Positions 27,504 to 51,870 of a stretch of DNA of 64,000 nucleotides are shown here, one piece after another. The stretch lies in the IMG/VR virus record IMGVR_UViG_3300045533_000060. The stretch is one strand, 5' to 3'. The notes under the pieces were generated by a model. It was not told the origin of the DNA and searched no databases. It saw only the letters and a program-made list of their open reading frames with translations. This DNA is from an uncultured virus (IMG/VR IMGVR_UViG_3300045533_000060). Lineage: Duplodnaviria > Heunggongvirae > Uroviricota > Caudoviricetes. Every line of letters begins with the position of its first letter. Within the stretch, counting starts at the first letter, position 1. The position numbers were made by a program, and so were the translations under genes.

Positions 27504-28301
27504 TCAATTGAACTTTATAACTCGAATACCACCTGTAGTTAGTTTAACAGCTAATATGTTAGTATCCAAGAAAAGCGAAGTGCCATTTGCGATATCATAT
27601 AGTTTACTAGAACCTGAACAGTTATCTGTTGAGTACACAGCCGAATTACTTGCATTAGGTTTTACAAAAAGACTTGTTCCCGAAACTGCGGTACAGTTTG
27701 CAGATACGTATGATGAGATAATAGCTCCACTACTCCCATCTCTACCATCCACTCCATTACTGCCAGCAGCCCCTTGTTCCCCCTGCAATCCTCTTAGACC
27801 AATTTCCCCACGTTCGCCTACTGCACCTTGGATACCGTCAATTCCTCTCGGACCTTCCATACCTGCTAAACCTTGAGGTCCAACCTTACCTTCTAATCCG
27901 GGCGGTCCTTGCTCTCCTCGTTCTCCTTGAAGTCCAATAGCTCCATCTCTACCATCAACTCCGTTACTACCATCTGCTCCATTAACCCCATCTACTCCGT
28001 CAGCTCCATCTTTCCCATCTTCTCCAGCAATACCATCTTCTCCATTAGTCCCATTGCAAGCAACTAGACTGTTTAGATATACATCGTACTCGTCTGTAGA
28101 GAAGTTATCATTCATATCCAGATAGATATCAAGTCTTTGTCCACCAGTAGAACATTCTATAATAGACGCAGCATTGATCTGCGATACTAATGAGTGCCCG
28201 TTTTCTCCATCCTTACCGTTCTTTCCATCAACTCCATTGGTCCCATTCTTACCATTTCTACCACATGAAACTAATAATAAACCTACGAGCAAATAACGCA
28301 T
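27504..28301 (-). CDS. collagen-like (G-X-Y) lipoprotein
   Basis: Start reassigned to MRYLLVGLLLVSC (RBS GGAGG, lipobox-like); two G-X-Y tracts. Confidence 0.8.
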   Translation of the reverse strand: MRYLLVGLLLVSCGRNGKNGTNGVDGKNGKDGENGHSLVSQINAASIIECSTGGQRLDIYLDMNDNFSTDEYDVYLNSLVACNGTNGEDGIAGEDGKDGADGVDGVNGADGSNGVDGRDGAIGLQGERGEQGPPGLEGKVGPQGLAGMEGPRGIDGIQGAVGERGEIGLRGLQGEQGAAGSNGVDGRDGSSGAIISSYVSANCTAVSGTSLFVKPNASNSAVYSTDNCSGSSKLYDIANGTSLFLDTNILAVKLTTGGIRVIKFN

Positions 28302-28311
28302 AGAACCTCCA

Positions 28312-30276
28312 TTAAAATAAATCAATATCTCCACCATCTTTAGAAGCTTTCTTAGCATCTCGAACTTCTCTAAGTTCCATGCGTTCGATATCCTCTAACT
28401 CTCTTATGTTACCAGTGAGTCCGTCCCAATGCAAATCTGCTGAGAATAATCTACCAGATCTATTCTTGACACAATCAATTGAGAAGAACTTATCTGTCTC
28501 AGGAGTGCGTGAACTGTACCCCGGACGATGAATCGTAAGGATAGCGGTACAAGCCTGAGCAATAGAAGAAGAACCTTTAGCCGAGTTATAGGATAGTAAC
28601 GGCTCATCAATCGTACTAGACATCTTATTAGGTTGCAAGAATACAACTACAGCTTTATTCATATTAATTGCAATCTCCCTTAGTCCTTGAATAACTTCTG
28701 CACTACTTTGAGTAGGATCAGAATATTTAGACTGGACCAGTTCAAGATAGTCCACTACAATTAATCGGAACTCAATGCCTAGCTTCTTTTCAGTATTGAT
28801 AATCGTTTGTTTCATTTCCTCAATACTCTGCCCTGTTTTGAAAACAAAACGTACATTCTTGTATTCCTCTGCTACAGTATCAGCAATCTTATTCTGCTCC
28901 ACAGAGGAACCAGTCTTGTATACTTCATATAGCTTATCTCTATCCATTCGAGTATGTCTCTGAATAAGCTTCTGAAATACATCATACTTGGACATATCAA
29001 AACTAAAGAACATCGAAGCGATATCAAGCTTGGAAGTATTGTTGTGTATAGTGACACCAAGAGATGTCTTACCTGAACCCGGAGGTCCAATGATACCGTA
29101 CAATCTTCCTACTTGAATATGCAAGTTCTTATCTAGGCAAGGGATTCCAAACTGCAGAGTATTCTTTTCAATCTCTCTAGCATAGCTTACGAATAAACTA
29201 GCTGTCTCTTTAATGTCATGAACATCTGCTTCATCATTAAGCACAGCATGAGAAGGAACCATGCCATGTAGCTTCATGAGCAGGTCATCGTTAGTAATAG
29301 AATACACTCCACCTTTCCAAGTAGGAGAGTAGAGCTGAGATATAATGTTCTTATATATCTCTTTCTTTGGAAACTTATCTTCGCCTAATCGTTCAGCTTG
29401 TAACTCTGCCGCAGACTTTAGAAAGTGGTAGGTTTGAGTTTCATTAAAGCCTAGAGACTTTAGCGTTGAGCCGAGAATCATGAGAGCATGACTACGCTCT
29501 CCCATCTCAAAGAATCCAAGAGAAAGAAGATACTTCTCAGGAGTAAGAAACTTAGGCTTACCAGTCCACTCTACATCTGACAAGTCATACGCCACTTTCA
29601 TCTTAGCTTCAATTGAAGGAGCTGCTGGAGTTTTCCTACGGAGAGTTTCCACGAACACGCTACCATCTGCAGGTTTGAAAATGGATGCTAGTTCAGTTGG
29701 CTCCATAGTATTCGTAGCCGCTTCTTTAATCTCTTCGATAGTAGCATCGGGCAATGCAGAAAAATCCAAAGGGATCTTATACAATCCTGTATCCATGTGT
29801 CTACTCAGAGGCAAACGAAGGATACGATTTGAATTGTATATCTGCTTGTCCAAAGTGTTAAGCCCATCCCCAAGATTAAGGCAGATGTTCTTAACTTCAG
29901 TAGGAGTGAAGCTACTTCCTTTAAGTATCACTTCAACTTGGAATCCTTTCTTTCCGGAAAAGAATAAAGCAATGTTATCTGGTTCGAATTTTGCGTTGTC
30001 GATAAGTCTACTGCAAAGTTCGTAAGCATCTTCCTTCGCTCTATCTAGATTATCTAAGCTATCAAAATCCCAGTACAGCTTATTAGTAACAGTGTCAGTT
30101 ATTCCCGCAACACTTCCGGTTTTTTTAAAGGTATTAAATTGTTCGTCGTTGTAGAGGAAAGCAGATGTATAGTAGTCCTTTGTCAAGTCAGTATCTTTGT
30201 ATAGATCACTACTGACTGGAACAAGGATACCTTTATCTTGTACACCTTTACAAATGCGAATATAGTTCATTTGCAC
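28312..30276 (-). CDS. primase (AEP-type)-helicase (DnaB/RecA-like) fusion
   Basis: YWDFD, FSGKKGFQ, RILRLP; GPPGSGKT Walker A, IVVDYL, KNRSG. Confidence 0.9.
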   Translation of the reverse strand: MQMNYIRICKGVQDKGILVPVSSDLYKDTDLTKDYYTSAFLYNDEQFNTFKKTGSVAGITDTVTNKLYWDFDSLDNLDRAKEDAYELCSRLIDNAKFEPDNIALFFSGKKGFQVEVILKGSSFTPTEVKNICLNLGDGLNTLDKQIYNSNRILRLPLSRHMDTGLYKIPLDFSALPDATIEEIKEAATNTMEPTELASIFKPADGSVFVETLRRKTPAAPSIEAKMKVAYDLSDVEWTGKPKFLTPEKYLLSLGFFEMGERSHALMILGSTLKSLGFNETQTYHFLKSAAELQAERLGEDKFPKKEIYKNIISQLYSPTWKGGVYSITNDDLLMKLHGMVPSHAVLNDEADVHDIKETASLFVSYAREIEKNTLQFGIPCLDKNLHIQVGRLYGIIGPPGSGKTSLGVTIHNNTSKLDIASMFFSFDMSKYDVFQKLIQRHTRMDRDKLYEVYKTGSSVEQNKIADTVAEEYKNVRFVFKTGQSIEEMKQTIINTEKKLGIEFRLIVVDYLELVQSKYSDPTQSSAEVIQGLREIAINMNKAVVVFLQPNKMSSTIDEPLLSYNSAKGSSSIAQACTAILTIHRPGYSSRTPETDKFFSIDCVKNRSGRLFSADLHWDGLTGNIRELEDIERMELREVRDAKKASKDGGDIDLF

Positions 30277-31271: not shown

Positions 31272-31670
31272 CTAATTTATTCCTACTTTCATTCCTAACT
31301 GTTTTCTAAACTCCAACAAAGCTTCACCTAAACTAGTCTCAGTGGACTTCTCAACTACTCTAATACTAACTTGTCCATCTTTGTCTAGAGTCGCATCGAC
31401 AAACATGATAACCTTATTCCCCTTAGCATCTGTAGTCATTAGTACATTTGGATTAGATACTTTTATCTCAGGCTTAACTTCTTTTACCTTAACTTCTTTT
31501 GGCTTATTGGGATCAAGCAGAAGGCTGATCTTATCTAGGTCTTCCTGAGTTAATTTCTTAGCATGAGATCCAACTTCAAATCCTAGATCATTTATCTTTC
31601 TTATAAACTCTGCGGCAGGTTCTCCTCTTTTTTTAGCTAGTTCACCAACTGTCATTAAATAGTAAGACAT
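31272..31670 (-). CDS. protein with IF2 N-terminal-like domain
   Basis: MTVGELAKKRG...FIRKINDLGFEVGSHAKKLTQED fits IF2_N pattern. Confidence 0.6.
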   Translation of the reverse strand: MSYYLMTVGELAKKRGEPAAEFIRKINDLGFEVGSHAKKLTQEDLDKISLLLDPNKPKEVKVKEVKPEIKVSNPNVLMTTDAKGNKVIMFVDATLDKDGQVSIRVVEKSTETSLGEALLEFRKQLGMKVGIN

Positions 31671-39450: not shown

Positions 39451-39711
39451 TTATTCAATGTCATAACTTACCCCATCAAGCTTAATCTTTTTAAGCGTGT
39501 TGATATTAATAGTCCGGTATCCTTCGGATTGCATATCGAATACCACTAGATAATTCTTTTCTTCAGGGTCATAAGATAGCTCGCCACCTTTGAGATGTTT
39601 CTTCACACCTAATCGACAAGTCATCTCTCGAAGTGTACCATCTTTTTTCTCAAAGACCACCGAGAAAATTTTGCTACCCACTAAAGCTCTGATTTGTTTT
39701 GTTTCTGTCAT
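39451..39711 (-). CDS. SH3-fold (WYL-like) small protein
   Basis: F.V.FEKKDGTLREM...VVFD....YRTI. Confidence 0.7.
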   Translation of the reverse strand: MTETKQIRALVGSKIFSVVFEKKDGTLREMTCRLGVKKHLKGGELSYDPEEKNYLVVFDMQSEGYRTININTLKKIKLDGVSYDIE

Positions 39712-39712
39712 A

Positions 39713-40357
39713 CTATTCTCCTATGGTTTTATTAAAGACTCGTTGCCACCCGTCTTTTTTGCGGGACTTTTTAGCGACAAGTCCGACTAGTTTGATGTCG
39801 GGATTGTAAGCATTGTCATCAAAGGCAGAAGTATCCTGATAACCGAAGGCAAGTAATTGCTCAAGCGATTGGAATACTAGAGCGTGTTTGTCAGTCTCAC
39901 GATTGATAAGATCGTCACGTTTACCACCGAAGGAAAATGTTATCACCATATTACTAGGCAAAGTTTTCTTCCAAGTATTAACGTCAGACTTGAAGAAGTC
40001 AATCGACTTAGTGTAACTATAGAAGATAACAGATGGATTTCGTCGGGCAATTTCTATCCACTTATCAAGATAGTCCTCGGAATAATAATCACCTGCATCA
40101 TGTACTCTGACCGCACCGACTCGAAGCGTGACTAGTTCTTGACACATTACGTCAATGAAGTCATCTTGCTTAGACGCTTGAAGCCTACGTTCTTGAGCAT
40201 CTTTGACCGACTTGAATAAATAATTTCCACCTAAAGCAAAGCAACCGATGGCACATGCCCCAGCGTTCGGGCATGTTTTTAATGCCTCTAATCCGAAGCT
40301 TGCCGATCGAATTAAATTCTTTCCAATCTTAGTGTTACCCATTGATAATAAACCCAT
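39713..40357 (-). CDS. GP88-like (radical-SAM-related) protein
   Basis: TCPNAGACAIGCFA, RVHDAGDYYS, W..IA..P...FYSYTKS. Confidence 0.75.
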   Translation of the reverse strand: MGLLSMGNTKIGKNLIRSASFGLEALKTCPNAGACAIGCFALGGNYLFKSVKDAQERRLQASKQDDFIDVMCQELVTLRVGAVRVHDAGDYYSEDYLDKWIEIARRNPSVIFYSYTKSIDFFKSDVNTWKKTLPSNMVITFSFGGKRDDLINRETDKHALVFQSLEQLLAFGYQDTSAFDDNAYNPDIKLVGLVAKKSRKKDGWQRVFNKTIGE

Positions 40358-40679: not shown

Positions 40680-41018
40680 TTATTCTATCGCTACAATACC
40701 CGATGCGTCAATCGTGGCAATCTTTGCCGACTTGATATCGGACTCGTCATCTTTCCTGACAAAACTAGTCCACTTGTAAGGATTGTATGTCACTTTAGTT
40801 GACTGACCTAGTAGGCTTACATCACCTACCCAGATACCTGAGCATCCTGCATGGACATTCTTAGACTTCTCTTGTCGGACTTTAGCATTACCTGCCTGAC
40901 CGACTAGGAATCTCACATCAGTCAAAGTAATACTGTCAACGTGAGCAATCACCTTGCCCTTATGCCTGACAGAATACCCGCCTCTATGCAAATTTCTATA
41001 AACATATACTCGCATCAT
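40680..41018 (-). CDS. conserved phage hypothetical protein
   Basis: VYRNLH...SVR...KVR.EK.KNVHA motif. Confidence 0.7.
   Translation of the reverse strand: MMRVYVYRNLHRGGYSVRHKGKVIAHVDSITLTDVRFLVGQAGNAKVRQEKSKNVHAGCSGIWVGDVSLLGQSTKVTYNPYKWTSFVRKDDESDIKSAKIATIDASGIVAIE
40682..40728 (-). promoter_or_regulatory. leftward sigma70-like promoter with upstream GGCAA-N3-TTGCC box
   Basis: Minus strand GGCAAAGATTGCC-ACGA-TTGACG-N18-TAGAAT. Confidence 0.65.
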
Positions 41019-41226
41019 TCACCTTTTCACACTCCGCATTATAGAGCGTGGCAAATTGTTCCAATACTCGTTCTTTATTACCCTTAAGAGAATACTCAGA
41101 TTTAATAATTGAGTATGCCGATCTACCCCTAGTCAATTGCATACCCGTTGCTATCTCGGTTCGCAATCCTAGCAATAGGACTTTCATCCTAAATAAATTC
41201 GTTTGAGCTTTACCTACTAATATCAT
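40996..41226 (-). CDS. hypothetical early protein
   Basis: RBS GGAGG; 76 aa. Confidence 0.6.
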   Translation of the reverse strand: MILVGKAQTNLFRMKVLLLGLRTEIATGMQLTRGRSAYSIIKSEYSLKGNKERVLEQFATLYNAECEKVNDASICL

Positions 41227-41464
41227 AAATCCTCCTATAATCCTACTAATACTCTTTCTACTCTAGGATCGCAGTACAATGACTGGACGTATCCCTTGAG
41301 CCATGTCGTATCAATAATTTTTCTCACCTCTCTAAAGGTAGCACCGCCCTGATGCTTTACGTAAATAGTTACTAGCATATTACTTATCTCCTGAGTTATG
41401 TACTCTGACTAATCTAAAGTAGTTTGATCGTTTAGTATAGCAGTACGCTTTACATTGTAGCATA

Positions 41465-41695
41465 TTACTCCCCTTTAATAATTGAGTTGATTAGACTCGT
41501 ATGACTTGCCAACCTTGCACCCACTTGTCTATCCTCTTCGATCTTGTACCCAAGGTCTAGGATATGACTTAATTGATTATCGCTGAAAGACTTAACCCCA
41601 AGCAAGCGGGCAAATTTTTCCGATATCATACATGATGGATAGACTAGTTCCCTACCATAAACATTTTTCGTTTTGACATACATTGTAGAACCCAT
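41465..41695 (-). CDS. first leftward early gene, hypothetical
   Basis: RBS GGAGG; KNVYG....YP....S..FA.L.G.K motif. Confidence 0.65.
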   Translation of the reverse strand: MGSTMYVKTKNVYGRELVYPSCMISEKFARLLGVKSFSDNQLSHILDLGYKIEEDRQVGARLASHTSLINSIIKGE

Positions 41696-41923
41696 TGATA
41701 CCTCCTATGCATTTCGGGCATTGTACCCAAAATGTAACCCATTAACTTTATGGGAAATCTTAATTTTCTTTTTAAAACATCTCAAAAAATTAACCAGTAT
41801 AAGTAAAAGAATACTGTAGAGTGATTGATAGTTTACTGCTTTCATACTGAAAATGAAAGCTAGGTAATAAATACCATCTTGCGATAACTTAAAGCTATGG
41901 CAGAAAATAGTCATTCCCTATAC

Positions 41924-42205
41924 TAAACCACTCCACAATATCCCTTTAATCTGTTCAGTTTACTGTTTATCCCCTTATCACACAATGGTACTTTCCAGAC
42001 GAGGATGCATCTTGTCATGACACACCGCTACACTCCACCATTGTACTTCGGGCTTTGGAACGAGAGTTCGTACTTTTCGGTACTTAGAGGATATACCTAT
42101 CCTCACTCGCTATACCACCATGCGTCAAAGCGTTCAGGCTCGCACCCATTACACTCTTCATGATGTCGTACCTATATGGTACTTCAGTAGATATTGCAGG
42201 TTACT
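41924..42205 (-). ncRNA. candidate large structured RNA (~280 nt)
   Basis: 11-bp enclosing stem (42189-42199 with 41933-41943) whose G-U pairs favour the minus strand; several internal hairpins; five AAGUAC copies; no credible ORF. Confidence 0.55.
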
Positions 42206-42284
42206 ACTTACCCCGATCTATCATAGTGATACTATGCGTCAATCGTTCTTTTGGTTATCGTGACTCGTTGCCTTGTCACTCTTA

Positions 42285-42709
42285 AATCTTATCTTAGTTT
42301 TTCTAAACAAACAAGCTAGGTAACTTTTTCCTATCGTCTTGTTGTTCGTTGTGTCCTTCGTTCTTCGTTGGCTTGATTGCCTTCGATGAAATAAGATTAT
42401 CACAATGAAATTAAAAAACAAGCTAGGCAATCTTTGCCGTTATCCTGAAACATCGCATATTAATAAGGACAAAGGGAACTATCAGAAAATAGGAAACTGT
42501 CAAGTAGGCAATCTTTGCCGTTTAGCTATACATAAAAAGAACACCTAGTCAACTAGGCAAATCTTTCCCCTAGAGTATATCAGTCAAGTATTAAAAGAGT
42601 ATCACCTTATAGAATACCATCATGCCCCTCGTCTAGTCAAGTAGGTAAATTCTGCCGATCCCTTTCCCTAGCATATAAATTCTGTTTAGTCAAGTGGGCA
42701 AAACTTTCC
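42285..42709 (-). promoter_or_regulatory. array of leftward early promoters with GGYAA-N3-TTKCC boxes
   Basis: Six boxes (42319, 42426, 42507, 42556, 42644, 42697), each 3-4 bp upstream of TTGAC(A/T) or TTGTTT; e.g. TTGTTT-N17-TAAGAT, TTGACT-N18-TATTCT. Confidence 0.7.
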
Positions 42710-42890
42710 CTCTTGACAGAGTGATCTAGTCAGCTTCTCTTATTCCTGAGTAGATTAGTTTGCTTCGTATATTATAGAATGACGCTAAGCCCCACCATAC
42801 CCCCCCCCCAGTGGGGTGCCGCTCCTAGCCAGTTTGGGACTGTCTGTACACAAGAATTGTAGTATATATATCTATGCACTCACTTTATGT

Positions 42891-42901
42891 AAACAAATGT
42901 A
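42891..42901 (+). promoter_or_regulatory. putative late promoter motif AAACAAATGTA
   Basis: Recurrent motif, 27 bp before the GTG at 42928. Confidence 0.6.
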
Positions 42902-42927
42902 CTTAGCACTTTACATAGGAGATATCT

Positions 42928-44136
42928 GTGGCTAAGAAAGTATATGAACTCGCTAGAGAACTTAAAATGGATGATAAGGATCTAGTAAGAAAACTAAAAG
43001 TAATGGGTATTAAGATAAATACAGCCCTATCGGAACTTTCAGATGAGGACTATCAGCGTGGGTTGCAAGAAGGAAAGGCTCCTGTAGGTAGAATAGAATT
43101 AGATAGCGCAGTAGCTAAAGCAAAAAAAGAAGCTTTGAATAGGAGAAAATATGAGGAGCAGTTTAAGGTTCCTCCTCAATTTAAAAATCCGCAACAATTC
43201 AGCGGAGCGCAAGGTGAAAGGATGCAAGCCTATATAAAGGAGCTAAAGTCAAACTTAAGAAATGGCAAGTATGCCCCCGAAGAAGCTGATAGAGTTATAA
43301 ATCTAATAACTAAAATGGAAGATTTAAAAATAGAAAATGATCTTAAAGTGGGAAGGTTAGCTGGAAGGAAAGGGGAGCTTGCGGAAAATCCAGAGCTAAC
43401 CAAGAAGCCTGAACAGACCTACAGAAATGATCCTAAAAAATTAGAGGAGCTACGACTAGAAAAGGAAGCTCGGATAGCGGCAGAGAGAAATAAAAAGCCC
43501 AACCTTCAAAATCCAGATCCCGAAATGAGGTACACTCCAGCTACTAAAAGTGAATATATGCCTAGAAGTTCAGCCCAACAAGCTGCGATTGATAAGCAAA
43601 AAAATCCTACAAAAGGAACTATTGGTAGGCTTTTAACTGACTATAATGATGAGTATGCACGAGTCATGTCAAAACAGGTTGCCAAAGAAACTGGCGAAAA
43701 AGCAATAAAAGAAGTGGCATCCGAGGTTGGAGAAGAAGCTGGAAAAGAGATTGCTCAAAAGCTATTTAAAAAATATGCAGGAAAACTTGCTATAGGAGCT
43801 TTAACTGGAGGATTGTCCCTAGGAGCAGAGGCTGCTTCAGAAGGTCTAGATTCTCAAGATTCTGGAGCAAGAAAGAATATGCCCGATTATTGGTTAGAGC
43901 GTGGAGTTAGAGATAGAGATGAACAGATTCAAAGAGCACGATTATCTTCATTTAAAGAAGATTTACCGTCCTACAATAAGATACCGGGTGCATACGAAAA
44001 ACCAGAGCTTCGTAAGTATAAAGAAGATGTTCTTCGAGCAGAGAAAGAAGGTACTCTACGGGATAACTATGTAGAGGATACTCAAGAAGAAGACGACTAT
44101 AAAAAGTTTAAGTCTTTGATGGGGAAGTTGAGATAG
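42928..44136 (+). CDS. IF2 N-terminal domain fused to a charged helical protein
   Basis: KKVYELARELKMDDKDLVRKLKVMGIKINTALSELSDED closely follows IF2_N consensus; GTG start with GGAG RBS. Confidence 0.75.
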   Translation: MAKKVYELARELKMDDKDLVRKLKVMGIKINTALSELSDEDYQRGLQEGKAPVGRIELDSAVAKAKKEALNRRKYEEQFKVPPQFKNPQQFSGAQGERMQAYIKELKSNLRNGKYAPEEADRVINLITKMEDLKIENDLKVGRLAGRKGELAENPELTKKPEQTYRNDPKKLEELRLEKEARIAAERNKKPNLQNPDPEMRYTPATKSEYMPRSSAQQAAIDKQKNPTKGTIGRLLTDYNDEYARVMSKQVAKETGEKAIKEVASEVGEEAGKEIAQKLFKKYAGKLAIGALTGGLSLGAEAASEGLDSQDSGARKNMPDYWLERGVRDRDEQIQRARLSSFKEDLPSYNKIPGAYEKPELRKYKEDVLRAEKEGTLRDNYVEDTQEEDDYKKFKSLMGKLR

Positions 44137-45827: not shown

Positions 45828-46063
45828 TTATATATTAAGTGAGTATGCTTTCTACTTGCACAATTTTTTCCACAATTCTCTCCCCAACTAACTGAAGGTT
45901 GCTGATTAGGACACTTAATCACATGCAGTATAGTTGGAGAGGGTCCTCCATCATCAAGCTTGAACACTCTACAACCCTCTAGTTCCGGAGGCATTTTATA
46001 GTCTCTCTCTTCTGTATAGGAAGCAGAGCAGGATATGATAAATAGCAGAAACAGATACTTCAT
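45824..46063 (-). CDS. small putative lipoprotein
   Basis: MKYLFLLFIISC lipobox-like start. Confidence 0.55.
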   Translation of the reverse strand: MKYLFLLFIISCSASYTEERDYKMPPELEGCRVFKLDDGGPSPTILHVIKCPNQQPSVSWGENCGKNCASRKHTHLIYK

Positions 46064-46383
46064 CTGTATACCTCTGTAGATGTTACTTCACTGGCTTCCA
46101 TGAGTAAACAGAACTCACGAATTACAGTGTGGGGTTGAATATTTCCGCATGTGAAGCAGTCCACATAAGCAATGCCTTCTTCTGGATAGGTATGCACTGT
46201 AATGTGACTCTCCGCTAATAGTATAGCTGCAGTTAGACCTTGAGGATAGAACTCGTGCTTAGTTGCTTGGAGTATAGTCATACCTGCATTATGAGCTGCC
46301 AAAAGTAAATAGTTGTAAGTTTTGTTGTTATCTACAAAGTCCCCTTGGACTTTTGAAAAGTGAGTATATCTCATTCTATGCAC
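46060..46383 (-). CDS. speD: S-adenosylmethionine decarboxylase proenzyme (pyruvoyl type)
   Basis: F.PQG.T...LLAESHIT.HTYPE.....DCFTCG; start probably MRYTHF. Confidence 0.9.
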   Translation of the reverse strand: MHRMRYTHFSKVQGDFVDNNKTYNYLLLAAHNAGMTILQATKHEFYPQGLTAAILLAESHITVHTYPEEGIAYVDCFTCGNIQPHTVIREFCLLMEASEVTSTEVYR

Positions 46384-48850: not shown

Positions 48851-49494
48851 TCCAATGCTTCCGATATTGCTGGAAACTGATCTATAAAAATATTTTGAAT
48901 AGCGGTAGCTATATCTGCATGTTCTTTTTGAGTTCCGTTTTCAGATCGCAAAGAAATGTAGTGAATCCAGTTTCTAACATTACCCGTCATATATAAGGTA
49001 GTTTCTGTAGATAATGGAAGTAGGAACCTAGCTTGTTCTTTTGCAATACCTCTCCGCAAAGCTTCATCATACATGGCTCTAGCATCTTCGGTGATTAATT
49101 GCTGTGCCATAGCGAACCAGTCTCTTGTATCATTATCTAGATCGTCGATTGAGTTTTGTCTATTTTTTACATCTTGTCTTCTTGCTGAGTAGATTTCGAA
49201 ATTTGTAGCCTCCGCATACCTCTGGCTAAATTCTTGGAAAACAAAACTTCGATGCCTTAGAATTTGCGCAGCTATAGCTCGACTTGTTGTGATCTCTATT
49301 GTCATATTGACATGTTCAAATACAGACCAGTGAGAGTTTTTAATACAGTAGCCTAAAAGTTTGCTAGAAGTTTTTGTATTCATTTGGTTGGAAGGATTAG
49401 AAACTCTAGCTACATACGCCATCATTTCTTCGGAAGTAAATTCTTCAATTTCTTTTTTAACAGGCTTTGTAACTGCTACAAGCTCTACTCTCAT
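48841..49494 (-). CDS. thyX: FAD-dependent thymidylate synthase
   Basis: HWSVFEH, QILRHRSFVFQEFSQRY, EQARFLLP, TQKEH. Confidence 0.95.
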   Translation of the reverse strand: MRVELVAVTKPVKKEIEEFTSEEMMAYVARVSNPSNQMNTKTSSKLLGYCIKNSHWSVFEHVNMTIEITTSRAIAAQILRHRSFVFQEFSQRYAEATNFEIYSARRQDVKNRQNSIDDLDNDTRDWFAMAQQLITEDARAMYDEALRRGIAKEQARFLLPLSTETTLYMTGNVRNWIHYISLRSENGTQKEHADIATAIQNIFIDQFPAISEALEWK

Positions 49495-50552
49495 TCCTTT
49501 TCCTTTAGGAGCTTTAGCTCCACCATTTTATATGTATACGCTACATAATTATCGACGGTGTTTACTTGAATAGTTTCATAGTTCTTATTAAAATTTGGAA
49601 TTGGTGTACACATTGAATGATCAAAAAATTCTTGATTTAAAGTTTCGTATTTATTTTTCAGAACTACTTTTGGAGCTTTACCTACTTGTCCTATATTAAA
49701 AACAGATGGACCTAGAGGGCTTGCCGTATAGTAGCTTAGAGTGCTAATTCCCGCAGCTTCCAGAGTTTTTCTGATGCATAAAAAACATTTACTATTATAA
49801 GCCAAAGGTCCACTTTGAACACTTATAACCCCACCTTCCTCTAGTAAACCTTTCACTGCTCTATAAAATTCCACACTGTATAGTTTATTAAAAATTTCTT
49901 GATCGGGATCTGGAAAATCGCAAATTATAACATCGTACTTTCTTTCTAGCTTTGTCTCTCCCCAATCTCTAGATGTCACGTATCTCCAAGCATCTTCGTT
50001 TATAACTGTACATTTTGACATAGAACTTTCATTTAACTTACTTAGTAAAGGTTCATTAGTAAATAGACTCGTAATGGTTTCGTCAAAATCCACTAAGGTC
50101 ACTTCACAAGCTGGTGCTTCTTTAAAAATTTGTTTTGCCGCCAGCCCATCCCCACCTCCTAGAATTAAAATTCTTTGAGGAGCTTCTTTTAGACCTCCGA
50201 TAGCGGGACTTACTAGTGCCTCGTGATATGTTCTCTCGCAGTTAGTAGTAAATTGAACTTGGTTATTTATTAGCAGTGCATGGTCGTCATTTGAATCTTT
50301 TAGTAAGTGTATATCTTGGAATCCTTCGTTTGAATGGAATACAACTTGATAATCTTCTATTGGAGCAACTATTTCTTTTGCTTTTTGAGAAAATACGTCC
50401 ATCAATTCAAAATGCTCTTTTCTAATTTCTGTAGTAAGGGTGTATATCTGCCCCTCAATCATTTTTCCAATTGTTAAACTGTTAGGTTTTACTGAAAAAA
50501 ATAAATCTCCTATTTGAATTGTAAAATCTTTTCTAATAAATAAATGCTGCAT
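49491..50552 (-). CDS. speE: polyamine aminopropyltransferase (spermidine synthase family)
   Basis: QF...E..YHEALV.P, ILGGGDG, LVDFD, EDA, DVIICDFPDP, LYSVEFY. Confidence 0.9.
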   Translation of the reverse strand: MQHLFIRKDFTIQIGDLFFSVKPNSLTIGKMIEGQIYTLTTEIRKEHFELMDVFSQKAKEIVAPIEDYQVVFHSNEGFQDIHLLKDSNDDHALLINNQVQFTTNCERTYHEALVSPAIGGLKEAPQRILILGGGDGLAAKQIFKEAPACEVTLVDFDETITSLFTNEPLLSKLNESSMSKCTVINEDAWRYVTSRDWGETKLERKYDVIICDFPDPDQEIFNKLYSVEFYRAVKGLLEEGGVISVQSGPLAYNSKCFLCIRKTLEAAGISTLSYYTASPLGPSVFNIGQVGKAPKVVLKNKYETLNQEFFDHSMCTPIPNFNKNYETIQVNTVDNYVAYTYKMVELKLLKEKE

Positions 50553-50960: not shown

Positions 50961-51290
50961 TCATTTGTTCCTCACATATAAATTTTTTAAATCTATTAAA
51001 ACCGACCCCTCTGGAACGGCTTCTCTTTCACATGGTCCAAATTGAAGCAAAAACATTGAAATTTCTATATTCACCCTCTTATTAGTGATCCCTGTGTAGG
51101 TATGTCTTATATTTTTAGATAAAAACTGCGATAATTTTTTATAATCCTTTGGATTTACCGTAAATTTTGTAACGTCTAAGTTTTTTAAATCGTCAGATTT
51201 TCCTAAGGATTTCAAGCATTTACGATAAAAATCAATAACAGGGTTGCCTGTTTTTATCTTTAGTCTAGTAGGGAATTTTATAATTTTCAT
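50961..51290 (-). CDS. hypothetical protein
   Basis: Start reassigned to MKIIKF after GGAG RBS. Confidence 0.55.
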   Translation of the reverse strand: MKIIKFPTRLKIKTGNPVIDFYRKCLKSLGKSDDLKNLDVTKFTVNPKDYKKLSQFLSKNIRHTYTGITNKRVNIEISMFLLQFGPCEREAVPEGSVLIDLKNLYVRNK

Positions 51291-51329
51291 AAATGTCTCC
51301 TGTTTTATTATAACAAATGTACATAGGAG

Positions 51330-51542
51330 ATGCAAATGGTTTGTAAAACCTGCAAAGAAGATAAAGTTAAAGAGCCAATTGTTCGTAAGGATGTGACCCG
51401 ATTCATAGATCAATCGGGTCGTTTATGGAATGGTAAAGTTTGTCCCGATTGTTATAAAGCATACAACCGGGAACGTATGCGTCTTAAGAGGTTAGAACTA
51501 CTCCAGAAAGATGAAAATTCGCAGACTCTGAAGATCGAGTAA
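51330..51542 (+). CDS. lone plus-strand zinc-finger protein
   Basis: CKTC...CPDC; own TAACAAATGTA motif (51311) and AGGAG RBS. Confidence 0.7.
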   Translation: MQMVCKTCKEDKVKEPIVRKDVTRFIDQSGRLWNGKVCPDCYKAYNRERMRLKRLELLQKDENSQTLKIE

Positions 51543-51870
51543 AGCTGATATAAAACCCCGTAGCTTCTAAAATTATTTTCGTACTAATTTTTCCATTATC
51601 AAGTATAGATTTGCTTACTCTAGTCACTCGGAATGCTGTAGTTTTTAGTCTAGAAATTGCCAGCTCCCTTCCAATTTTTTTATTAAATGAATCTTTTGTA
51701 GAGCAAACCGACATTCCAAGTTTAATATCGCCTATCACTGTATTTATTTCCACCTTAGAAAGATCTGCTGATTCGATATTAACCGCTATAGTTGCTCCAC
51801 CTTTTGTTGAATCTCTAAGATGTTTAAACTGAATTGACATACTATCTCCTTTTAAAAATTTGAAATCCAA
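51484..51870 (-). CDS. conserved phage hypothetical protein
   Basis: GGATIA...CSTKDSFNKKIGRELA..R motif; start probably MSIQF. Confidence 0.65.
   Translation of the reverse strand: MDFKFLKGDSMSIQFKHLRDSTKGGATIAVNIESADLSKVEINTVIGDIKLGMSVCSTKDSFNKKIGRELAISRLKTTAFRVTRVSKSILDNGKISTKIILEATGFYISFTRSSESANFHLSGVVLTS

Follow-up and report, generated by a model that had tools for sequence, protein, structure and literature searches.

A conserved multi-helix RNA behind predicted early promoters of an uncultured tailed phage

Results and discussion

The minus strand of an uncultured tailed phage sequence (IMG/VR record IMGVR_UViG_3300045533_000060; 64,000 nucleotides, referred to here as the window) encodes a conserved multi-helix RNA fold that matches no catalogued RNA and represents a new structured family. 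The RNA is predicted to be about 350-380 nt in length, with its 5' end at ~42280 and its 3' end between 41931 and 41903. An initial annotation had placed at this locus a structured RNA of ~280 nt, closed over its length by an 11-bp stem. The element is real, but it is longer than this and its fold had been only partly recognized: a multi-domain, structured, non-coding RNA of no known family, on the minus strand behind early-type promoters, is upheld by the analysis, while the long-range closed fold is not. Among large RNAs, few combine many covarying helices with invariant loops, and those that do tend to have a sophisticated function.

Genomic context

Genes of the window include those for RIIA, RIIB, a primase-helicase, DNA polymerase A, ribonucleotide reductase, ThyX, ERF, a ClpP-like protease, terminase, portal and major head protein, along with other phage genes. 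Among the matches listed from freshwater metagenome runs, 20 rows from 15 studies carry all or part of positions 41400-42900; nine further runs, with shares of ~0.3, were left aside. A blastn search of GenBank phages with positions 41400-42800 gave no match, and tblastn searches with RIIA and with the 76-aa protein encoded nearest to the RNA gave no close cultured phage. TANNNT-type -10 boxes and L5-family genes hint that the host is possibly actinobacterial. The RNA is located in a divergent intergenic stretch of ~1 kb containing repeats, palindromes and a G10 tract, in the following setting:

42928 (start), plus strand: rightward gene of 402 aa, the other flank of the divergent intergenic region
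41701-41728, minus strand: translation-initiation leader GGGUACAAUGCCCGAAAUGCAUAGGAGG, preceding the 76-aa gene and conserved in relatives
41465-41695, minus strand: first early gene (translation, 76 aa; 28 homologues)
41465-41695, followed by ORFs of 100 aa or more between 41018 and 15239, minus strand: leftward block, a ~26-kb early and middle operon
40680-41018, minus strand, downstream of the RNA: L5-gp82 family gene
39713-40357, minus strand, downstream of the RNA: GP88 family gene (28% identity to gp88, E-value: 2e-9)

Pfam analysis identified an IF2_N-type domain at the start of two proteins, the 402-aa protein (42928-44136, plus strand; E-value: 9e-9) and a 132-aa protein (31272-31670, minus strand; E-value: 2e-8). 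The former, as the divergent neighbour of the promoter array described below, could be the regulator of that array. The phage also carries a polyamine-synthesis pair adjoining ThyX and ribonucleotide reductase, consisting of an S-adenosylmethionine decarboxylase (46060-46383; Pfam E-value: 2e-23) and a spermidine-synthase-like protein (49491-50552; Pfam E-value: 2e-22), both on the minus strand. A collagen-triple-helix-repeat protein (27504-28358, minus strand; Pfam E-value: 5e-22) is encoded within the replication module.

Relatives and distribution of the RNA

The 28 homologues of the 76-aa protein were aligned and 80 metagenome loci were retrieved. Based on blastn and an nhmmer profile, the non-coding region is present in five of these (L002, L003, L004, L005 and L021), in all of which the RNA homologue is found upstream of the 76-aa gene; the remaining 75 loci bearing this gene family have no counterpart of the RNA. 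In the window, the profile matches once, at 42281-41905. A conserved-motif pattern added an 82-kb IMG/VR contig (L084), which scores identically to L002 with our two covariance models, R1 and R2. This contig is the one true homologue among six IMG/VR loci matched by the pattern, the other five matches and all seven genome loci being coding DNA. When 84 sources were searched with R1 and R2, the same seven loci were recovered with no further member, and the additional matches of R2 had E-values of 0.21-6.8. Exact or gapped DNA patterns from the window were not found in IMG/VR or the JGI metagenomes, nor were IMG/VR relatives of the 402-aa and 214-aa neighbour genes; a RIIA relative (L001) ends at window position 39564, short of the RNA. 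The comparative set used below consists of six distinct sequences (the window and the five loci), all from one phage clade.

In L021, the RNA has 68% identity over 366 nt by blastn, and the adjoining gene is detectable at the protein level only (44%). Because L021 keeps the RNA within reach of blastn and does not keep the neighbouring gene there, selection appears to act on the RNA.

In L002 (~820-845), the GGGUACAAUGCCCGAAAUGCAUAGGAGG leader precedes a different small inserted gene, and in this locus at least it looks like a portable expression cassette. In L004 (~1075-1105), where an extra small gene comes ahead of the 76-aa gene, the leader of that gene is different and shorter. The distant relatives L003, L004 and L021 have in common with the window (42800-42905; 75-83% identity by blastn) both a G10 tract (42800-42809, minus strand) and a conserved block that contains GTGCATAGATATATA near the start of the divergent 402-aa gene. 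In L004 a CA/CG-rich insertion adjoins the G10 tract. Possible roles for this region are those of an origin, a regulatory site or a genome end.

Structure of the RNA

The fold comprises the following elements, given from 5' to 3'. Percentages are those of cells paired over the six sequences.

42260-42279, minus strand: H0, 5'-terminal hairpin GUGAC/GUCAC; relatives have a hairpin with other arms at the same place
42186-42208, minus strand: H1, hairpin AGUAG/CUACU with a 13-nt loop containing CUGCAAUAU
42168-42182, minus strand: H2, hairpin GUACC-AUAUA-GGUAC; 4 pairs, 100% paired, 2 altered on both sides
42116-42165, minus strand: H3, long hairpin of three stacked helices (P3a, P3b and P3c); 18 pairs, 97-100% paired, 8 altered on both sides
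42059-42111, minus strand: three-way junction, in which PJ encloses H4 and H5
42106-42111 with 42059-42064, minus strand: PJ, AGCGAG with CUCGUU; 6 pairs, 100% paired, 4 altered on both sides
42087-42104, minus strand: H4, inside PJ, with the conserved loop AGGUAU
42070-42083, minus strand: H5, inside PJ, with the frame UAA-stem-GAAC; 4 pairs, 100% paired, 2 altered on both sides
41972-42052, minus strand: 3' domain, in which P6 encloses P7 and P7 encloses H8
42050-42052 with 41972-41974, minus strand: P6; 3 pairs, 100% paired, 1 altered on both sides
42037-42044 with 41982-41989, minus strand: P7; 8 pairs, 100% paired, 4 altered on both sides
42004-42026, minus strand: H8, with the loop AUGACAA; 86.5% paired, one-sided changes only
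41966-41979, minus strand: conserved single-stranded GAUAAGGGGAUAAA, present in six of six sequences and overlapping the 3' arm of P6
41935-41966, minus strand: H9, local hairpin using the GGAUAUUGUGG arm; 5 pairs, 93.3% paired
41903-41934, minus strand: 3' flank with a possible last hairpin, AGGGAA/UUUUCU; the nhmmer match reaches 41905

Several of these helices are built from different sequences in different relatives. The arms of H0 are GAGAC/GUCUC in L002, AGAGC/GCUCU in L004, AUCUCC/GGAGAU in L005 and CCCU/AGGG in L003, and the hairpin is absent in L021. H1 reads AGUGA/UCACU in L021, and the other four loci have a different hairpin at this position (CGUGG/CCACG or UUGUGG/CCACAA). The arms of H4 are wholly different between sequences and 75-100% paired in the MAFFT register, in which the window, L002 and L003 are one column off. 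H8 has insertions or a shorter, out-of-register hairpin in L002, L004 and L021. H9 shows no both-sided change in the tested register, and L021 pairs in another register. Hairpins are found in the single-sequence folds of the relatives at the same place as that of the 3' flank. The unpaired segments that are invariant are GCUUUGACGCA, the AGGUAU loop, GGAGUGUAG, AAUGACAA, CGUCUGGAA and GAUAAGRGGAUAAA; the first of these, an 11-mer (42121-42131) identical in six of six sequences, spans P3b, a 5-nt internal loop and P3a.

Covariation and strand

RNAalifold analysis of the six sequences returned 38 pairs, with compensated double changes in 19, and missed PJ, the helix closing the three-way junction. 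For the 5' half, the structure was written onto a MAFFT alignment and compared with two types of control: the same structure with its partners slid by 1-3 columns, and 500 shuffles. Pairing was observed in 96.3% of the 219 cells (38 pairs), as compared with 32.3-42.5% when slid. Twenty-one pairs are altered on both sides, the covariation score is 0.658 (0.221 in shuffles), and none of the 500 shuffles reached the observed values, so that covariation among homologues, which the initial annotation had named as a check, is present. In the 3' half (24 pairs), 94.6% of cells are paired, as compared with 21.1-54.2% when slid. Five pairs of P6 and P7 are altered on both sides; these two helices covary. 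H8 and H9 are weaker because they show only one-sided changes or register shifts, and H4, H8 and H9 are imperfectly aligned. Relatives from four sequencing runs carry a further compensation in H1, in which AG>GA at 42208-42207 goes with CU>UC at 42187-42186, preserving its two outer pairs. A tertiary pairing of UUCCA with UGGAA, tried by eye, fits the window, L004 and L005 and was rejected as it does not fit L002, L003 and L021.

G-U pairs occupy 52 of the 348 cells (15%), many of them invariantly, and would be A-C on the opposite strand, where pairing falls from 95.7% to 80.7%. The minus strand is therefore the RNA sense, in agreement with the initial annotation, in which G-U pairs had been taken to mark this strand. 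Folding of the element as a single sequence is less telling. The minus strand folds at -80.4 kcal/mol (shuffled: -70.1 ± 4.6; z = -2.23; 4 of 200 shuffles fold as well) and the plus strand has a z of -2.37, and such single-sequence folding is by itself weak evidence, being modest and not strand-specific.

These measurements bear on two readings in which no RNA of this kind is needed. According to the first, the hairpins would form in DNA and serve as a replication origin, a packaging site or a site for single-strand initiation. The setting, 1 kb of divergent intergenic DNA with repeats, palindromes and a G10 tract, would suit such an element, as would the near-equal folding of both strands in the single-sequence tests. 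It is nevertheless made highly improbable by the G-U pairs just described, by an orientation that agrees with that of the promoters, and by the absence of iterons from a region whose AAGTAC repeats are not conserved. According to the second, the locus has no function as a unit and is a set of unrelated small hairpins or a chance fold of untranslated spacer. The modest single-sequence z of -2.2, similar on the other strand, and the lack of both-sided changes in H8 and H9 speak for this reading; the covariation of the long-range helices PJ, P6 and P7, the invariant unpaired blocks, and an L021 RNA better conserved than the adjacent gene all speak against it, and we consider its probability to be next to negligible.

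Comparison of the relatives also revises the fold first proposed from the window. The local stems GUACC/GGUAC, GAGGAUA/UAUCCUC, GUAC/GUAC and ACAAUGGU/ACCAUUGU are real and covary in relatives. In contrast, the 11-bp closing stem is complete in the window (11 of 11 pairs) and is included in the minimum-energy fold of that single sequence, but over the six sequences only 63.3% of its cells are paired; the shuffled value is 61.7%, and 189 of 500 shuffles score as high. Its arms are used elsewhere, the 5' arm as the loop of the covarying hairpin H1 and the 3' arm as part of H9. Two of the short pairings are replaced as well: UGGGU pairs with GCCUG (in P3c) rather than with GCCCG, and the CGCA that had been matched to UGCG sits in the invariant internal loop and P3a, within GCUUUGACGCA. 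The hexamer AAGUAC does occur five times on the minus strand between 41988 and 42184. This excess is only local, since the window as a whole contains 40 copies on both strands (37.2 expected). Neither the hexamer nor the AA-stem-GA frame is conserved as a shared motif; the corresponding stems of L004, L005 and L021 read GUAAG/CUUAC and AUAG/CUAU. AAGUAC is a stem sequence that covaries away in relatives, and, as the repeated hexamer is not kept, the idea of a multivalent AAGUAC sponge is not supported.

Non-coding status and comparison with RNA families

As had been noted from the window, the element contains no credible ORF: there are 9-12 stops per sense-strand frame in the window and 6-17 in each frame when all six sequences are considered, with no open frame conserved among them on the sense strand. 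The homologues differ by indels of 2, 4, 32 and ~58 nt, including lengths not divisible by three. On the 3' side, a 69-aa ORF (41705-41914, minus strand) is probably not a gene; its product would be of low complexity, it lacks a properly spaced ribosome-binding site, and it overlaps promoter P3 and conserved non-coding hairpins.

A search of the 64 kb with Rfam 15 at the gathering threshold gave no matches. With the E-value relaxed to 10, positions 41000-43000 gave three matches (11.8-17.2 bits, against gathering thresholds of 44-90), none of them inside 41924-42280. A possible resemblance to 5S rRNA was discarded as it had no Rfam match. ARAGORN found no tRNA or tmRNA genes in the window, and no published description of the RNA was found in full-text searches of the openly accessible literature. 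No antisense target was found, because the complements of nine conserved unpaired motifs occur nowhere else in the window, chance 9-10-mers apart.

A fold with a conserved junction and conserved loop nucleotides around covarying stems, located in a 5' non-coding position, raises the question of a riboswitch-like sensor, in which a small molecule or ion, bound by the three-way junction or by the 3' domain, would govern read-through into the early genes. This is improbable for four reasons. First, no Rfam riboswitch is matched even at E-values up to 10. Second, no conserved terminator/antiterminator or Shine-Dalgarno-sequestering platform was found, and no terminator-like site follows the fold. 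Third, over 200 nt separate the fold from the ribosome-binding site of the first gene, with another promoter (P3) in between. Fourth, the RNA is well above the size of usual aptamers.

Predicted promoters and ends of the RNA

Three promoters, read by eye from the sequence and therefore to be taken as predictions, are associated with the RNA:

42286-42331, minus strand: P1, with the imperfect palindrome GGAAAAAGTTACC (42319-42331), TTGTTT (42309-42314) and the -10 block GATAAGAT (42286-42293)
42215-42242, minus strand: P2 insert, with TTGACG (42237-42242), a 16-nt palindromic spacer and TAGATC (42215-42220)
41830-41875, minus strand: P3, between the RNA and the first gene, with GGTATTTATTACC, the spacer hairpin GCUUUCAU/AUGAAAGC and the -10 TAAACT

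A generic consensus scan returned five promoter-like sites (7.1 expected) and called none of P1, P2 and P3. The predicted start of P1, at ~42280, is where H0 begins. The architecture of P1 and its -10 block (GATAAGAT, GGTAAGAT or GGTAATAT) are found at the same place in L002, L003, L005 and L021, and the relatives from sequencing runs lose similarity at 42277, beside the predicted start. The TTGACG of P2, which the initial annotation had correctly pointed out, belongs to an insert found in the window and L021 only, the other four relatives lacking it; in L021, P2 consists of TTGACG, 18 nt and a TAAGAT lying inside GATAAGAT, the -10 block of P1. In relatives, P3 takes the form GGTATTTTTTACCTACGCTTTAC ... 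G(G/A)TACGAT, which mirrors the -10 block of P1. Considering the window and relatives together, P1 and P3 have in common the -10 G(G/A)TA(A/C)GAT and an upstream GGnAnnnTTnCC-TA motif. P3 is followed by a hairpin, then by the conserved ribosome-binding leader and then by the first gene. As no terminator-like site was called by the scan between H9 and P3, transcripts from P1 may run on as a leader.

Upstream of P1 there is an array of like units, each containing the palindrome GGCAAAGATTGCC or a variant, TA, a TTGAC/TTGTT hexamer and a -10 that is either TG-extended or of the G(G/A)TAAGAT type. Every promoter of the array has a hairpin at its predicted 5' end. Within the array (42319-42720, minus strand), the 13-nt palindrome GGCAAAGATTGCC is exact at 42426-42438 and 42507-42519, with variants elsewhere, and one palindrome copy was also called as terminator-like. 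A GGCAAAGATTGCC-type 15-mer with up to three mismatches occurs seven times in the window (1.8 expected), and four such sites are inside the leftward operon (40714, 39311, 35991 and 30329). Judged by sequence, the palindromes bring to mind the operators or "stoperators" to which a dimeric regulator binds. A reading of the GGCAAAGATTGCC palindromes as N4-type hairpin promoters was dropped following a Pfam scan of 47 other ORFs, in which no RNA-polymerase family was identified.

In one metatranscriptome run (X15), a contig of 356 nt matches 41950-42277 with 23 differences and two gaps. Because such a library may include DNA and the predicted start lies ~26 nt downstream of where the contig begins, the contig is a record of presence and not of a discrete transcript. 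The same run has one contig on the RNA and none on the 76-aa gene, and a missing contig is no evidence of differential expression.

Proposed role

We propose the following model. Transcription would start at the conserved early-type promoter P1, and the RNA would begin at that start site. The tandem array of like promoters upstream would feed the same RNA, with P2 adding a second promoter before the core in the window and L021. As same-class promoters bracket the RNA and P3 with its own leader lies ahead of the first gene, the RNA would be a transcription unit of its own. It would be synthesized at a high level at the very start of infection and then remain as a stable non-coding RNA that works in trans, its invariant unpaired segments serving as a decoy or scaffold to which a host or phage protein binds. 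Since promoter bracketing and a tandem array coincide with invariant unpaired blocks on covarying stems, we tentatively favour this reading of a stable early non-coding RNA, made massively at the start of infection and working in trans by protein binding, and regard it as the most likely of the readings, at slightly less than even odds. It is possible, if on the unlikely side, that the tandem array yields chiefly this RNA, as a self-contained, highly abundant and ornate molecule taking over or disarming a host function in trans. Such takeover might work by tying up a host protein, for instance an RNA-binding protein, a nuclease or a defence sensor, or by assembly of the RNA into a higher-order particle.

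The main alternative, and a distinct possibility, is that the RNA instead acts in cis, as the 5' leader of the leftward early and middle operon of ~26 kb. Remaining attached to the transcript or to the polymerase, the folded RNA would make RNA polymerase terminator-resistant (put-like processive antitermination), protect the 5' end of the mRNA or provide processing sites. The RNA is directly behind the early promoters and ahead of both the 76-aa gene and the long run of minus-strand ORFs (41018 to 15239); no terminator was called at its 3' end, a hairpin marks the predicted 5' end of every array promoter, and the put RNAs of HK022 hold the same kind of position. However, P3, with its own leader, sits between the RNA and the first gene, and its transcripts would lack the RNA for this reason. 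In addition, known antitermination or stabilizer elements need far less than the ten or so helices and several invariant loops found here, and the 76-aa gene family does without the RNA in 75 of 80 loci.

The favoured trans-acting reading would make the RNA a candidate RNA-based factor for host takeover or anti-defence in abundant freshwater phages; the cis-acting one would make it an unusually elaborate element for the control of early phage transcription. On either account, it appears to sit at the site of the earliest and strongest phage transcription, and at least one relative conserves it better than the gene next to it.

Comparison with known systems

GOLLD and ROOL are longer than the ~350 nt found here. 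They resemble the window RNA as large, many-helix, non-coding RNAs in uncultured lake or phage DNA (PMC12286853). The window RNA has no Rfam match to either and differs in its context, an early promoter region. The putL and putR elements of HK022, just downstream of phage early promoters, are two stem-loops of ~70 nt that act in cis on RNA polymerase. The window RNA is likewise a folded RNA encoded just downstream of early promoters, but it has about ten helices over ~350 nt, arranged in two multi-helix domains, and a further promoter precedes the genes. T4-type phages reportedly carry promoter-early stem-loop (PeSL) cassettes, an observation attributed to Arbiol et al. in 2010. As in these cassettes, repeated early promoters, each with a hairpin, bracket short units of a plastic early region, and similarity to the relatives of the window stops at the unit borders; the bracketed unit in the window is, however, a long structured RNA and not a small ORF. 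In T7, the tandem early promoters A1-A3 precede a processed leader that is not known to be a conserved multi-junction fold. The likeness here consists of a closely spaced array of strong early promoters with one leader ahead of the first early gene. GOLLD/ROOL, HK022 put, the T4-type cassettes and the T7 leader thus have only single features in common with the window RNA.

The closest parallel is found in the cluster-A mycobacteriophages L5, D29 and StarStuff, in which Pleft, located upstream of genes 89 and 88, gives rise to a stable non-coding RNA of ~500 nt; this RNA is toxic and is the most abundant transcript of those phages (PMC5712189). Both RNAs are non-coding stretches of several hundred nucleotides directly downstream of an early lytic promoter and upstream of small early genes, and neither has a canonical 3' terminator. 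The window operon contains GP88 (39713-40357) and L5-gp82 (40680-41018) family genes on the same strand as the RNA at 42280-41931. The first genes of the window and L5 are unrelated, and the L5 region 51,140-51,672 gave no nhmmer match with filters off and E-values up to 100, and none with R1 or R2. Abundance, stability and toxicity are L5 data, whereas the window RNA is known from its sequence; conversely, the passages on the Pleft RNA give no secondary structure (PMC5712189), in contrast to the covarying fold in the window. Because there is no similarity between the RNAs or the first genes, the window RNA is a positional analogue of the Pleft RNA and not a member of its family. A non-coding RNA produced from the early promoter, a phenomenon known mainly as an unexplained mycobacteriophage RNA-seq peak, is here given a defined fold, coordinates and two covariance models. 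If the host-takeover reading is true, this would be the first structurally defined early "host-takeover RNA", with the toxic Pleft RNA as its functional counterpart. In our best reading, the window RNA would be a self-standing and probably abundant early non-coding RNA that binds protein, and its role would parallel that of the Pleft RNA.
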